Source: a virus
Taxonomy: Duplodnaviria > Caudoviricetes
Length of the DNA: 64,000 nucleotides
IMG/VR virus record: IMGVR_UViG_3300008116_000002
Strand: one strand, 5' to 3'
Shown here: positions 5,453 to 10,849 of the stretch, piece after piece
How positions within the stretch are numbered: position 1 is the stretch's first letter
How the letters are laid out: each line of letters starts with the position of its first letter
Translations under genes and position numbers: made by a program
Notes under the pieces: generated by a model
Databases searched by the model: none
What the model saw: only the letters and a program-made list of their open reading frames with translations
Told to the model about the DNA's origin: nothing

Positions 5453-5986
5453 ATGAGCACACTAAAAGAACTGACTTGGGAAAAACATAAAGAAGCGGAA
5501 GACCAACCCTTTATAAAATCTATTTTTAAAGGCCAAGTTGATAAGGATCAGTATACAGATTATCTCTATCAGCTTAGGATTTTATATACGAAATTAGAAA
5601 TTCTTGGCGATGGTTTAGGTATCTTCGATGGGATGGAAGATCTAAAAAGAGCTAAAGCTATTACTTTAGATTATGCAGAACTTGCGAACGGACATACTCA
5701 GTTCCATGTTATTCGCAATTCTACTTTAGATTATTTAGATTATCTTAATACTATTCAAGATAACAAAGACAAAGTAATGGCACACATCTATGTTCGTCAT
5801 ACCGGAGATCTATTCGGAGGACAAGCCTTAGCTAAACTTTTACCTGGGCCCAATAATATGTTTAAGTTTGAAGACATACCTAATCTGGTACAAAAGATTC
5901 GTTCTAAAATTGATGTATCGATGGCACCTGAAGCTAACAGAGCTTTTGATTTTAATATTAGCATGATCAAAGAATATAATGTCTGA
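5453..5986 (+). CDS. ho1: Heme oxygenase
   Basis: N-terminal LKELTWEKHKEAE (proximal His) and HIYVRHTGDLFGGQ signature. Confidence 0.9.
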   Translation: MSTLKELTWEKHKEAEDQPFIKSIFKGQVDKDQYTDYLYQLRILYTKLEILGDGLGIFDGMEDLKRAKAITLDYAELANGHTQFHVIRNSTLDYLDYLNTIQDNKDKVMAHIYVRHTGDLFGGQALAKLLPGPNNMFKFEDIPNLVQKIRSKIDVSMAPEANRAFDFNISMIKEYNV

Positions 5987-6665
5987 TACATTTGAGGTTT
6001 GGCCTAGAGCCAGAGAGTTAGCAGATAAGATTATATCTCGTTTTAATTCTTATGAGCGAGAGGATATTAATCCTGAGTATGAGATACACGTAGATAATTT
6101 TACGTGGAAAAATTACTTATGGAAGTCTGAAAAATTTAAAAGAGCTCACATAGAAATTGTAGACGCCTCTGAAACTAAAAAGATGTGGGTTATGCATATG
6201 TGCATTTATCCTCATTATAATTCTTCTGATCCAATATTTGGTTTTGATATTGTCTGCGGTAAAAATAAAATTACTGGGGCTTTTCACGATTTCTCTTTTA
6301 TTGGATTATCTGATCTTTATAATTGGTTTCAAGGAACCATGCTAAATGTTAAATGGTCTAAACCAAGAGATCTTCCTGATTGGGCAAAGAAGATCTTTAG
6401 TCCAGCAATGCTAGCAGCAGGAAACATTCAAACCGAAGAAGAGTTTAATCAATTGGAAAAAGTCGTTATAGACAATCTTGATTATTACCTTTATAATGTA
6501 GGTAAAGTAGTAACAGGTTCTGATTTTTCTTCGAGGCATGATCATTATTGTAAGAATCAGAAATTAAACCCACACACTCCTGCCATGATGGAAACTTTTG
6601 GTGTTGATAAACAGGTTTTTGCGAAATTTATGGACGAAGTTTTATTCCCAGAGAAACATGGATAA
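5979..6665 (+). CDS. Ferredoxin-dependent bilin reductase, PcyX/PcyA-like
   Basis: FKRAHIEIVD, MHMCIYP, PIFGFDIVCG, GAFHDFS, YCKNQKLNPHT and C-terminal EVLFP motifs; overlaps the heme oxygenase stop. Confidence 0.88.
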   Translation: MSDTFEVWPRARELADKIISRFNSYEREDINPEYEIHVDNFTWKNYLWKSEKFKRAHIEIVDASETKKMWVMHMCIYPHYNSSDPIFGFDIVCGKNKITGAFHDFSFIGLSDLYNWFQGTMLNVKWSKPRDLPDWAKKIFSPAMLAAGNIQTEEEFNQLEKVVIDNLDYYLYNVGKVVTGSDFSSRHDHYCKNQKLNPHTPAMMETFGVDKQVFAKFMDEVLFPEKHG

Positions 6666-6924
6666 AGAAATAGAATACATTTTAACAGACAGTTTAATTA
6701 TAACCAAAAAATTTAGATCACCCAATGAGTTTTCTTTACATATTGAAGAGAGGGTTTTGAGAGAAAAAATAGGATATATGGATGCGGTTATTCAATATTG
6801 TGAGGAAGTAGATATAGATATTGAATCCATATCTAAATTAATTAATCAGTCTCTAAAAGATAAAATACAGAATGAGGCTGAAGAAAATAACTTTATGAAA
6901 CGTAGAGGAAAATTGCCCCTGTGA
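6658..6924 (+). CDS. gp33: Late transcription co-activator gp33
   Basis: FSLHIEE...GYMDAVIQYCEEVDIDIESISKLINQSLKDKIQNEAEENNF...KLPL; start taken at ATG 6658 rather than 6598. Confidence 0.85.
   Translation: MDKEIEYILTDSLIITKKFRSPNEFSLHIEERVLREKIGYMDAVIQYCEEVDIDIESISKLINQSLKDKIQNEAEENNFMKRRGKLPL
6812..6895 (+). repeat. 84-bp perfect inverted repeat, copy inside gp33 (partner 8961..9044)
   Basis: Base-by-base comparison shows 6812..6895 equals the reverse complement of 8961..9044. Confidence 0.95.
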
Positions 6925-7532
6925 TTATGGATGAGTTCTCAGTGTATAAAATGTATATTGCTTTAAAGCTGCATTTTACTACAGATAATTATGATATAAC
7001 TAAAAGAAACGGAAAGGTGAGAGCTAGTAGAGATGCCTTTAATAAAAGAAAAGATCTTTTCTCTATAAGAAAAATAGCTAAGTCTTATTCCGATGAGGAA
7101 GTTGCTAATTTTTTAATTTCAAATTTTGTATCAGGTAATCGTTGGGGTGGGGTATTTGATTCTGATGCGGGGAAAACATACCTTGAATGGAAAGGTAAGA
7201 TGGAAAGCCTTTCCTACATATTTACTAATGAACTAGATAATCTGATAATGGAGTTGGAATCTCAAAAAATTAGTTTAGCTGATTCCTTTCAGATCACAAA
7301 AGCCCAGCATCCATATATATTGAAGGCTTATTTGAGAAATACTATATCTCTGGAAACTCTAACTATCATAGAAAAGGTTATGCCTTTTGTAGAAACTTTT
7401 GATAGTAAATTATCTGCAGATTTAGTATGGCCGGATGTTTCTAGACTTATTAAAAAGTATAAACCATTTTTAAAAATTGACAAAGAAAAGTACAATGGAA
7501 TATTCGAATCAAGATGTGGAACTGGATATTAA
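6921..7532 (+). CDS. gp59: Helicase loader gp59
   Basis: VYKMYIALKLHFTTDNYD...RKDLF...FLISNF...W; conserved gp33-gp59-gp32 synteny. Confidence 0.85.
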   Translation: MIMDEFSVYKMYIALKLHFTTDNYDITKRNGKVRASRDAFNKRKDLFSIRKIAKSYSDEEVANFLISNFVSGNRWGGVFDSDAGKTYLEWKGKMESLSYIFTNELDNLIMELESQKISLADSFQITKAQHPYILKAYLRNTISLETLTIIEKVMPFVETFDSKLSADLVWPDVSRLIKKYKPFLKIDKEKYNGIFESRCGTGY

Positions 7533-7978: not shown

Positions 7979-8905
7979 ATGGCATTTCAGTCATTATCTG
8001 ATTTAAGAAAATCTCGTGGCGGTTTCGACAAACTAATGAAGGAAGTCGAAAAGATTGCAAGCCCACAAGGAGAATCAAGAGCTGACGATCGCTTCTGGCA
8101 ACCAGAGGTAGACAAGGCAGGTAACGGTTACGCTGTTATTCGATTCTTAGCCCCACCTAAAGGAGAAGAACTACCCTGGGTTCGTATTTGGAATCATGGT
8201 TTCCAAGGACCTACAGGAAAGTGGTATATTGAAAATTCTCTTACTACACTAAATAAAACAGATCCCGTTTCAGAATATAATACTGAATTGTGGAACTCTG
8301 GGTCTGAAGCGAATAAGGAAATTGCTCGTAAGCAAAAGCGTAAGCTAACTTATATCGCAAATATTATGATTGTCAAGGATCCTGCTCATCCAGAGAACGA
8401 AGGTAAAGTATTTCTTTACAAGTTCGGTAAGAAGATCTGGGATAAGATTAAAGATCTAGCAGATCCACAATTTGAAGACGAGAAGCCAATCAATGTATTT
8501 GACTTCTGGGAAGGGGCAAACTTCAAATTGAAGATTCGTAATGTAGAAGGCTATCGTAATTACGATAAGTCTGAATTTGAATCGCCTAGTGCTTTATCTG
8601 AAGATGATTCTGCAATTGAGGAAATTTGGGGTAAGCAATACTCGTTACTTCAGTTCCTCGATGAAAAGAATTTTAAATCCTATGACGAATTGAAGAAGAA
8701 ATTCGATATGGTTATGGGACTTGCAGGTGGCACTATTTCTACTAAGAAAGCTGAAGATACTTACTTAGATGAGGAATTCGAATCTGCTCCAAAGGTACAA
8801 GCAACTGCTGCGCCTAAGCAGGTTGAAAAGGCACCTAAGAAGGAAGTAGACTTTGACGACGATGATGAGTCTTTGTCCTACTTCGCTAAATTAGCTGAAG
8901 ATTAA
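7979..8905 (+). CDS. gp32: Single-stranded DNA-binding protein gp32
   Basis: DDRFWQPEVDKAGNGYAVIRFL, WYIENSLTT, GANFKLKIR and acidic tail ending SYFAKLAED. Confidence 0.96.
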   Translation: MAFQSLSDLRKSRGGFDKLMKEVEKIASPQGESRADDRFWQPEVDKAGNGYAVIRFLAPPKGEELPWVRIWNHGFQGPTGKWYIENSLTTLNKTDPVSEYNTELWNSGSEANKEIARKQKRKLTYIANIMIVKDPAHPENEGKVFLYKFGKKIWDKIKDLADPQFEDEKPINVFDFWEGANFKLKIRNVEGYRNYDKSEFESPSALSEDDSAIEEIWGKQYSLLQFLDEKNFKSYDELKKKFDMVMGLAGGTISTKKAEDTYLDEEFESAPKVQATAAPKQVEKAPKKEVDFDDDDESLSYFAKLAED

Positions 8906-8932
8906 AAAAAAGCCCGCTTCGGCGGGCTTTTT
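8904..8932. terminator. Bidirectional intrinsic terminator with UUCG loop
   Basis: A8-GCCCGC-TTCG-GCGGGC-T5 between convergent genes. Confidence 0.92.
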
Positions 8933-8941
8933 ATTTCATTC

Positions 8942-8960
8942 TAATTTAGTAATTCCGTCT
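8942..8960 (+). repeat. 19-bp direct repeat of tape-measure coding sequence (partner 10208..10226)
   Basis: TAATTTAGTAATTCCGTCT occurs at both positions. Confidence 0.9.
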
Positions 8961-9044
8961 TAAAGTTATTTTCTTCAGCCTCATTCTGTATTTTATCTTT
9001 TAGAGACTGATTAATTAATTTAGATATGGATTCAATATCTATAT
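8961..9044 (-). repeat. 84-bp perfect inverted copy of gp33 coding sequence
   Basis: Reverse complement identical to 6812..6895; overlaps the last codons and stop of the 605-aa ORF. Confidence 0.95.
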
Positions 9045-10849
9045 ATCGAACCATATCTTCGCACAAAATCTTTAAAATTCTCATTTGTATTTTCAGATGT
9101 CGACGAATTTGGAGTTACTGTTGTTGAATTTTTTCCAGAATCGCCTTGGCCTAAAATGTTATTGGTAACATTGTTAACTGTGCCACTAAATTTTTCTTTT
9201 GTATAATCAATAAGTTCTTCACTTAGCTTAGTTGTATCTTCTATAGTCTTTGCTAGGGCTGTACCTAGTCCGGGAGCAAGATTAATTTTCTGATCTTGTA
9301 TTGTTATTTCGCCTAATTGATCTAAAAACGGCACTATCTTTTTCTCGATATCTTCCTTAGAAAGAAAATCTAGATTGTCTGAAAATTTTTCTAATGCTTC
9401 ATTTGCTTCTTTTAGTAATTTATTGAATGCGCCTTGATTCTGCAATTCATCATATTCTTGTCGCAGTTTTGCTTCTTCATTTTTCTGTGCTATAATATCT
9501 TTTTCTCTTTGTTCGGCTTCATCTAGTTTCGCCATTTGTCCTTCGGTGAGTTTCTGCCCATTTATCATTCCACCTTGAGATTTAACCCATCTTGCATATT
9601 GCCCTTCGGTCCATTTCGTTCCGTCACCCAACGGGCTATCTAGATAACGTATATCTCCCATTGTACCTCTAACATCATAGGTTTCACCTGGAGCTAAATC
9701 TCTACTAGCATTAAAAGGCCCAGGCATATTTCCGAATAATGATCTATTAGAAGGCGAATACGGACTTCCGAATAATCTACTAGTATTTCTCGCGCCTTTA
9801 TTTGGCAAACCCCCTTTAACAATATCCTCAATAGTTGCATCTGGATCATCAGGTAATAACATAGTAAGTCCTAATGCAGCTAATGCCCCCGCAAGCCCTC
9901 TTCCTGCACCACCTGGAGAAAATCTACTAGGTCTTCCTGTTCTAACATTCTCGGCATCTACAACTCGAGGACCATACTTTCCTTCATTCCAGGGGAAACG
10001 CGATTTGTAATTTGGGTCGAAGGGTGCGCCTCTGCCCGGACCTTCCAATAGAAGGCGGTTACCTCCTGGTCTTGTTGTGGGGCGGGTGCCTCCTCCGCTC
10101 GGGTTCTTTCCATCAGGAGGTAGGACAACAGGAGGCTGGCCCCCAGGTTTCTGTCCACCAGGGAAATTGGCCCCAGGCATTCCAGGAATCGTAGGAAATA
10201 ATCTAGATAATTTAGTAATTCCGTCTACTAATTTATCGAACCCATTAAGTAAACCTTTAAAACCGGACATTAAAGTACTTGATAATAAAGAGATCGCACC
10301 AACTATTCCTGCAAGAAGAATTTTACCTAAGCCAGATAACATTCCTCCAGATGCGCCGCCGCCCATATCTAAACCCGACATTCTTCTAGCAATAGCTTCG
10401 GCAAGCTTTTCTCTCTCAATTGCACGTTTAGAATCTGTACTTTGCCTAGCTATAAAATCTATATTTCTAGCTTGTCTTTCGGTTATATCCCTAAGTGCGC
10501 TCATTTCCTCCATCATTTTTTGTTGATATTTAGATGGGCCGAATACCTTACTAAATAAATTTGTAAAGAACCCTTTATCGGGTTGCGCTTTACCTCCAAA
10601 GGATGAGCCGAAAGATCCCTTGCCCTTTCCTGCTAGATAACTTTTTATTTCTGAAATACCGCTACCAAGTTTAAAAACTTCCCTTTGTATATCTTTATTT
10701 TCTTTATTAGATGAAGATCTCCTATTCTTAAAGATTTCATCAGATATAGTATGCAATATCTTCGATTGTTCTCGAAGACTATCATTTTGTGCCTTTAGGC
10801 TATCTATGATAACTCTATCGGTTGGGTTCAACTTATCGAAAGGTAACAT
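9032..10849 (-). CDS. Putative tail tape-measure / baseplate hub protein (gp29 analogue)
   Basis: 605 aa, N-terminal coiled coil, Gly-rich hydrophobic segments (GGMLSGLGKILLAGIVGAISLL, GLAGALAALGLTMLL); directly downstream of gp26/gp51; size similar to T4 gp29. Assignment is positional. Confidence 0.55.
   Translation of the reverse strand: MLPFDKLNPTDRVIIDSLKAQNDSLREQSKILHTISDEIFKNRRSSSNKENKDIQREVFKLGSGISEIKSYLAGKGKGSFGSSFGGKAQPDKGFFTNLFSKVFGPSKYQQKMMEEMSALRDITERQARNIDFIARQSTDSKRAIEREKLAEAIARRMSGLDMGGGASGGMLSGLGKILLAGIVGAISLLSSTLMSGFKGLLNGFDKLVDGITKLSRLFPTIPGMPGANFPGGQKPGGQPPVVLPPDGKNPSGGGTRPTTRPGGNRLLLEGPGRGAPFDPNYKSRFPWNEGKYGPRVVDAENVRTGRPSRFSPGGAGRGLAGALAALGLTMLLPDDPDATIEDIVKGGLPNKGARNTSRLFGSPYSPSNRSLFGNMPGPFNASRDLAPGETYDVRGTMGDIRYLDSPLGDGTKWTEGQYARWVKSQGGMINGQKLTEGQMAKLDEAEQREKDIIAQKNEEAKLRQEYDELQNQGAFNKLLKEANEALEKFSDNLDFLSKEDIEKKIVPFLDQLGEITIQDQKINLAPGLGTALAKTIEDTTKLSEELIDYTKEKFSGTVNNVTNNILGQGDSGKNSTTVTPNSSTSENTNENFKDFVRRYGSIYRY

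Follow-up and report, generated by a model that had tools for sequence, protein, structure and literature searches.

In the 64,000-nt stretch of phage DNA analysed here (the window), the sequence that lies behind the gp32 terminator, at the very 3' end of the tape-measure-like tail gene, is best understood as a young templated ('patchwork') insertion of ~97-103 nt, specific to one lineage, which would have arisen by a multi-step template switch at a module boundary and is probably neutral. We assign a probability of roughly 78% to this reading. A template-switch scar was among the interpretations offered in the initial annotation of this DNA, and it fits: the patch draws on two donors of the same genome, is identical to both and is absent from relatives.

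The window is part of a ~213-kb T4-like phage of freshwater metagenomes, as judged from the longest contig carrying its proteins and from the sample types. On the plus strand it encodes heme oxygenase, bilin reductase, gp33, gp59, two small open reading frames (ORFs) and gp32; the minus-strand genes run towards gp32 and comprise gp4, gp2, a gp48-like tube protein, gp26-like and gp51-like genes and a 605-aa ORF. The features relevant to the patch are the following.

6598..6924, plus strand: gene of the late-transcription co-activator gp33, the donor (Pfam PF16805 Trans_coact, 1e-23; phrog_254)
6812..6895, plus strand: donor segment of gp33 (arm 1), residues ...DIDIESISKLINQSLKDKIQNEAEENNF of the 88-aa protein, ending just before the conserved C-terminal tail
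6921..7532, plus strand: gp59 helicase loader, within the repeat-bounded segment (Pfam/PHROGs naming holds)
7979..8905, plus strand: gp32 single-strand DNA-binding protein, within the repeat-bounded segment (Pfam/PHROGs naming holds)
8907..8932, both directions: two-way intrinsic terminator common to gp32 and the tail gene, kept in all relatives
8933..8941, minus strand: native spacer by the terminator, GAATGAAAT in minus sense, found in the relative L017 too
8942..8960, minus strand: 19-nt direct copy of the tail gene's internal site 10208-10226 (19/19)
8961..9044, minus strand: 84-nt inverted copy of gp33 6812-6895 (arm 2); the minus strand reads as gp33 sense
8944..9054, minus strand: by-product ORF of 37 aa (47 aa if started at 9084) with a 28-residue gp33 fragment in frame, labelled Trans_coact by gene callers
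9045..9052, minus strand: GGTTCGAT (minus sense), the last native-frame tail-gene bases ahead of the copy, equal to internal site 10235-10242 (8/8)
9032..10849, minus strand: 605-aa tape-measure-like gene in gp29 position, with its stop TGA 9032-9034 in the gp33 copy
10208..10242, minus strand: internal donor site of the tail gene, encoding GFDKLVDGITKL, conserved in relatives

The probable start of gp33 is ATG 6658, which gives 88 aa, and 88-aa homologues are abundant; a phmmer search of gp33 against PDB sequences gave no match. At the DNA level the C-terminal half of gp33 is ~90% conserved even among distant relatives. The terminator has an 11-pair stem with six G-C pairs and a TTCG loop, preceded by an A-run and followed by a T-run. 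The 605-aa ORF has no family in Pfam or PHROGs, and 'tape-measure-like' is a lead based on its position after the gp26/gp51-like genes together with an Atlas feature search in which a T4_Tape_measure (PF25671) cluster scores 0.91. The middle of the protein is Gly/Pro-rich, and there is one hydrophobic stretch. Against the window, the lineage members L010-L014 show 0 to 3 base differences over the 3.8-8.8 kb fetched per assembly (JGI, ENA, NCBI), and the lineage of this ~213-kb freshwater phage looks very clonal and widely sampled.

The composition of the patch, as first described from the letters alone, was borne out on checking. The 8961-9044 stretch is complementary to gp33 6812-6895 at 84 of 84 positions, 8942-8960 is identical to 10208-10226 inside the tape-measure-like ORF at 19 of 19, and the tail ORF does take its stop from the gp33 copy, the TGA lying inside it. 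Stretched to 8958, the arms of the inverted repeat measure 87 nt at 99% identity. No long inverted repeat other than the 84-mer exists in the 64-kb window, and further copied fragments, for which a self-dotplot had initially been proposed, do not stand out within it. An exact 84-mer is expected zero times by chance. Base shuffles of the window yield ~0.2 exact repeats of at least 19 nt per window, so that the 19-mer taken alone is borderline; because it abuts the 84-mer exactly and its source site matches 8 nt beyond the 84-mer as well, chance becomes negligible for the 19-mer too. Read on the minus strand, the order is native ...TATGGTTCGAT, 84 nt in gp33 sense, AGACGGAATTACTAAATTA (19 nt), GAATGAAAT and the terminator. 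The internal site has the order GGTTCGAT-AAATTAGT-AGACGGAATTACTAAATTA: its outer parts of 8 nt and 19 nt recur in the patch as the two flanks of the gp33 piece, and the 8 nt in between, AAATTAGT (10227-10234), are all that is skipped. Identical templates for all pieces are thus present in the same genome (84/84 in gp33; 19/19 and 8/8 in 10208-10242). The internal site is understood as donor, not recipient, because it is conserved in relatives. At the equivalent of 9045-9052 relatives have GGTTT(T/A)AT instead of the window's GGTTCGAT, and the bases at this left flank may also derive from the internal site.

The patch is real DNA. At least 24 assembled contigs (JGI, ENA, NCBI, Logan) span the whole of it with the arrangement unchanged; the assemblies represent at least six samples, four repositories and different assemblers, some of the runs possibly being the window's own source. 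One JGI (L011), one ENA (L012) and two NCBI assemblies (L013, L014) match the window at 100% throughout the region, position and orientation of both copies included, and another NCBI assembly (L010) shows 3 differences in 5857 bases. The 605-aa product depends on the gp33-side junction and is found unaltered in 38 blocks of the collection, 12 of them with contigs of 0.2-1 Mb (24 contigs read). The 37-aa ORF (9054-8944), which crosses all three junctions, occurs exactly in 28 blocks (24 contigs read), the places shown being one ENA contig named k141_... and two NCBI assemblies. In the Logan unitigs of two deep metagenomes, runs X1 and X6, the four arm junctions stand at 54-59x and 396-431x, respectively, which is genome depth, and the 84-nt unitig stands at 127x and 791x, about twice the junction depth, as expected for two copies per genome. 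Competing arm junctions are not listed among the unitigs of either run.

Other contigs touch the locus as well. A loose contig end at 8960 is explained by the contig of the internal site itself. One contig, present in both DNA runs, follows the window from 8908 rightwards and has another hairpin-like sequence upstream (...CAACCCTTCGGTTG...); the terminator may have a second occurrence in the genome, or stand beside other sequence in a relative. Both runs also contain a minor contig (5.8x vs 59x; 20x vs 396x) in which 172 nt of gp32 (8142-8315) are swapped for an equal-length diverged stretch, and which seems to stem from a variant in the same community whose gp32 has a mosaic patch. At the contig end of NCBI GCA_031546645.1 (L013:5268-5397), gp33 has a markedly different N-terminal half that is still gp33-like (phrog_254). 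The break is at window position 6788, 24 nt upstream of arm 1, and the C-terminal half is 100% identical; gp33 is mosaic in this contig, or else the contig end is a chimera of phages that occur together.

Comparison with relatives argues for the insertion being a derived state. In the window the stops of gp32 and of the tail gene are separated by a gap of 126 nt. In every relative examined, from 46% protein identity to 92-95% DNA identity, the gap at the same site is only 20-38 nt and corresponds to the shared two-way terminator.

L001-L003, tail protein 46% identical: gap 22 nt
L004, 84% nt identity: gap 26 nt
L005-L008, ~84% nt identity: gap 21 nt
L017, 79% nt identity: gap 38 nt
Two contigs with gp33 P0018, gp33 99% identical in amino acids, sister contigs L015/L016 at 92-95% nt identity: gap 20 nt
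L023-L025, gp33 91% identical in amino acids: gap 29-30 nt

In L009 (~90% nt identity) the tail stop codon abuts the terminator. An inverted repeat of at least 25 nt is absent from all relatives scanned and is present in L011, which belongs to the window's own lineage. As far as the compared sequences go, the patch is private to one nearly clonal lineage. Comparison of the gp32/tape-measure junction among relatives had been proposed at the outset, and the lack of the patch there speaks for a scar and against a control element. Exact-pattern scans of viral_contigs and metagenome_contigs returned no insertion-free allele and are uninformative, viral_contigs being without the inserted form too; a protein-based scan of metagenome_contigs found no relative and is likewise uninformative on the patch. 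The phages collection holds no close relative: gp32 alone matches, at ~70% nt identity, and tblastn with the tail protein gave none.

Relatives that are 79-95% identical through gp33-gp59-gp32 (L017, L015/L016 and an ERZ21966605 contig) have strongly diverged tape-measure genes, of 596 aa or 532-534 aa and with different C-termini. The DNA similarity of L017 to the window extends through gp32 and ends at the terminator, and the lineage with a 99%-identical gp33 has a 596-aa tail protein that is absent among the listed homologues of the 605-aa protein. Since relatives are alike in gp33-gp59-gp32 but diverged in the tail gene, the terminator region (8905-8940) is understood as a recombination boundary between replication and tail modules.

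The ancestral end of the tail gene can be approached from the same relatives. The tail protein ends ...RRYGSIYRY-stop in the window and ...RR(H/Y)G(F/L)I(N/K)-stop in relatives, that is, one codon past the point where the gp33 copy begins. Set against ...RRYGSI plus copy in the window, the relatives' ends therefore imply that nearly everything from 9044 to the terminator spacer is extra. L004 has the native end GGTTTTATAAATTAA followed by the terminator, and L017 has ...TGAAATAAAAA beside the terminator in common with the window. From these two, the ancestral end was probably ...GGTTCGATAAATTAG, reading ...GGT TCG ATA AAT TAG (GSIN-stop), and the pre-insertion allele on the minus strand would have been ...GGTTCGATAAATTAGAATGAAAT.... 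An ancestral GSIN-stop end entails a 7-nt overlap, TAAATTA, at the return junction. The terminator-side 6-7 nt of 8942..8960 (TAAATTA) probably coincide with this native gene end, as junction microhomology. An insertion of the 84 nt alone, in frame, was also considered; its deletion gives ...GSIDGITKLE-stop with a TGA by the terminator, and it was dropped, closer relatives ending one codon after ...GSI.

The insertion appears to be young. Arm 2 is identical to the phage's own gp33 at 84 of 84 positions and has 4 differences in 87 nt from the gp33 of the closest relative, L015/L016; strains within the lineage show at most 3 differences in 5857 nt. On this comparison the insertion is younger than the split from the 92-95% identical relatives. 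The perfect identity had initially been taken to mean that the patch is either very recent or actively maintained. The first part of this is upheld and the second is not: 0 differences in 84 nt need no homogenising mechanism, because the whole lineage is ~100% identical over many kb. One strain bears on the relation of the two arms. The gp33 variant P0020 (JGI 3300042691, 150.5-kb contig) has Ile changed to Asn in arm 1 (DIDNES; window 6820-6822), and the strain has the exact tail protein and, at the patch position, a 37-aa Trans_coact ORF, the latter known from its size and label, not its sequence. If arm 2 of this strain retains Ile, the copies are not being homogenised.

How the pieces would have come together can be outlined as an excursion of a growing strand. 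The strand would leave the tail-gene template, copy 84 nt from the opposite strand ~2.2 kb off, return 8 nt past its departure point, copy 19 nt there and rejoin the original site via a short overlap. This could have happened in one event with three or four switches or in two successive events; in the latter route, the internal site would first convert the gene end and the gp33 tract would then replace 8 nt. Most likely, replication or recombination-dependent repair would have stalled where gp32 and the tail gene converge on their terminator, a site made plausible by the GC-rich two-way terminator hairpin, the convergent transcription units and the mosaic module boundary in this phage group. 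T4-type phages replicate largely via recombination-dependent replication. First described in T4, this mode of replication counts as break-induced replication and readily undergoes template switching (PMC3678771), and the signature of MMBIR consists of templated insertions inverted with respect to a nearby template, the use of several templates and microhomology joins (PMC8421209). It is the product that is observed in the present case; the mechanism is what we infer from it.

Departure from and return to nearly the same template point, with 8 nt skipped, is found in the patch. The microhomology amounts to 7 nt (TAAATTA) at the return junction, a figure resting on the inferred ancestor, and to 0-1 nt at both ends of the gp33 piece. 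Homeology of the flanks at the gp33 junctions is not above that of random pairs, save for a hairpin-type match (p ~0.016): the native AGATATGGTTCGAT before the gp33 junction approximates the reverse complement of gp33 6820-6834, forming a ~15-bp quasi-palindrome, whose score was reached by 81 of 5000 random site pairs. The quasi-palindrome may have helped to bring the two sites together, and no simple switch path yields the product from it. That clear microhomology is seen at one junction only, and relative to an ancestor inferred from relatives 79-90% identical, counts against a template switch.

The patch resembles the templated insertions of FoSTeS/MMBIR (PMC8421209, PMC3678771) in having exact nearby templates in the same genome, more than one of them and one copied inverted; in the strand's return near its point of departure; in microhomology at one or more junctions; and in the absence of the insertion from sisters. 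It differs in that the main template is 2.2 kb away, not within ~100 bp, that the 84-nt tract is long and that two of three junctions are almost without microhomology; furthermore, the setting is a T4-like phage genome in nature and the process is known from its product alone. In the Ripley-type quasi-palindrome model for phage T4, ectopically templated mutagenesis occurs at imperfect direct or inverted repeats, the classic cases being changes of a few bases within short quasi-palindromes. The kind of phage is the same, and so is the principle of a donor elsewhere in the genome templating a complex one-step change, whereas the patch involves ~100 nt added and two donors. Differences at adenine positions, by which a diversity-generating retroelement would be recognised, are not found (0 differences in 84 nt), and an essential, conserved gene serves as donor in place of a non-coding template repeat.

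The same scar might have been formed by another route, with the pieces joined as RNA or cDNA, or as filler in the end joining of a double-strand break. All three pieces are mRNA-sense on the minus strand and two junctions lack microhomology, as such a route might leave them. However, the coincidence of orientation has a chance of ~1 in 4, and leaving the internal site to return 8 nt further on is typical of a polymerase excursion, so we regard this route as improbable.

Also unlikely is that recombination between the two 84-bp arms, whether through a dedicated enzyme or the homologous recombination of the phage itself, flips the ~2.06-kb segment with the gp33 tail, gp59 and gp32 between two isomers. 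Sporadic flipping is expected in that T4-type phages recombine avidly, ~50 bp of homology being enough for recombination in T4, and one contig fits it: in a 1352-nt Logan contig from a single run (L022, SRR7182495), 5787-6895 is joined to 9044-8718 reversed at 100% identity, which is the inverted-isomer junction. The contig encodes gp33 residues 1-79 followed by KTELLN (P0055), a hybrid on record in that contig only. Against this, the assembly used k=31, shorter than the 84-nt arm, so that the graph cannot phase the flanks of what is one short contig, and clipped dead ends at low depth can create such a join. All readable higher-k JGI, ENA and NCBI contigs show the window's orientation only. 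A recombinase (invertase) gene is present neither in nor beside the segment: besides the gp33 tail, gp59 and gp32 it contains two small ORFs, neither matching a family, and its neighbours are a bilin reductase gene and tail genes. The flipped form swaps the C-terminal tail of gp33, K..RGKLPL, nearly invariant in homologues, for KTELLN and should be defective, so that working genes are left in one orientation only. The invertible segment of the initial annotation is left without a recombinase and would cut off the gp33 tail. Inverted repeats bracketing a gene-bearing segment are shared with the Gin/Cin/Hin systems, but here an invertase gene is lacking, the arms are 84 bp of coding sequence instead of short recombination sites, inversion would damage an essential gene and phased assemblies show one orientation. 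We treat L022 as uninformative; occasional recombination between the arms is to be expected in a T4-like phage and would be deleterious. That the repeat is an active recombination substrate, with the L022 junction real and the segment flipped in at least 1% of replicating genomes, we consider very unlikely. If true, gp33 would be made without its conserved C-terminal tail and gp59 and gp32 would be placed behind the late tail operon, amounting to a stochastic brake on late transcription or to a standing genetic load tolerated by a widespread lineage.

A role in antisense control, initially proposed as well, would have a gp33-gp59-gp32 read-through transcript pair over 84 nt with gp33 mRNA, such that RNase III cutting or a block of translation tunes the co-activator. 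The geometry permits it, since the plus strand of the copy is antisense to gp33 and follows the terminator at 29 nt, and a duplex of 84 perfect base pairs would suit RNase III well. The proposal gains no support from the evidence and seems to us very improbable: a strong two-way terminator stands between gp32 and the copy, and the copy is conserved in no relative, being absent even where gp33 is 99% identical and throughout the range of 91-99% identity in which a complementary pair might have been kept together with its target. As no relative has the copy, control of gp33 in this phage group is independent of it. The 19-nt tail-gene piece and the skipped 8 nt, moreover, have no role in antisense control, whereas they are expected for a scar. 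In two metatranscriptome runs, Logan contigs extend over gp59-gp32 as far as 8842 and 8860, and 8905-9700 is without cover; since the contigs carry neither strand nor depth, this gap counts neither for nor against.

It is highly unlikely that the 37-aa (or 47-aa) ORF is a new small gene whose gp33 fragment competes with gp33 at RNA polymerase. The fragment lies in frame behind an ATG, matches positions 35-62 of the Trans_coact model and is called by gene callers in public assemblies. Its start, however, is within the tail gene in another frame, with no convincing ribosome-binding site by eye; it is without the N-terminal half and the conserved tail of gp33; and it occurs in this lineage only, nucleotide-identical to its donor, too young to have diverged from it and hence with no sign of selection. 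The ORF is probably not a gene. An assembly or amplification chimera, for which one might cite that inverted joins are typical of amplification chimeras and that several contigs end in or near the arms (L010, L013), was raised in the initial annotation and is refuted for practical purposes by the many independent assemblies spanning the patch, which agree base for base at all junctions in at least six samples, and by junction unitigs at full genome depth with the repeat at double depth in two runs.

We thus return to a templated insertion, made by template switching, as the preferred reading and consider what it would entail for the phage. The end of the tail protein, in the ancestor probably ...GSIN-stop, has become ...GSIYRY-stop, the 3' untranslated stretch is lengthened by ~100 nt, and the gp33 tail, gp59 and gp32 have come to lie between the arms of a perfect 84-bp inverted repeat. 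No regulatory role is suggested for the patch, which leaves knowledge of gp33 or gp32 regulation unchanged. It is probably neutral, or slightly costly since the repeat is a recombination substrate; hitch-hiking could have fixed a neutral patch in a widespread lineage, and a benefit is also possible. Practical consequences extend to annotation, in that gene callers tag the by-product ORF as a second 'late-transcription coactivator', and to assembly, in that short-k assemblies break at the 84-nt repeat or may misjoin there. The patch is an unusually clear new case of an already known type of mutational scar. As such, it would provide a natural example of how a T4-like phage gains new sequence by sloppy copying, in one event or a short series, the outcome being a new C-terminus for a structural gene, a small ORF built of transcription-factor sequence and, flanking two essential replication genes, a long inverted repeat.
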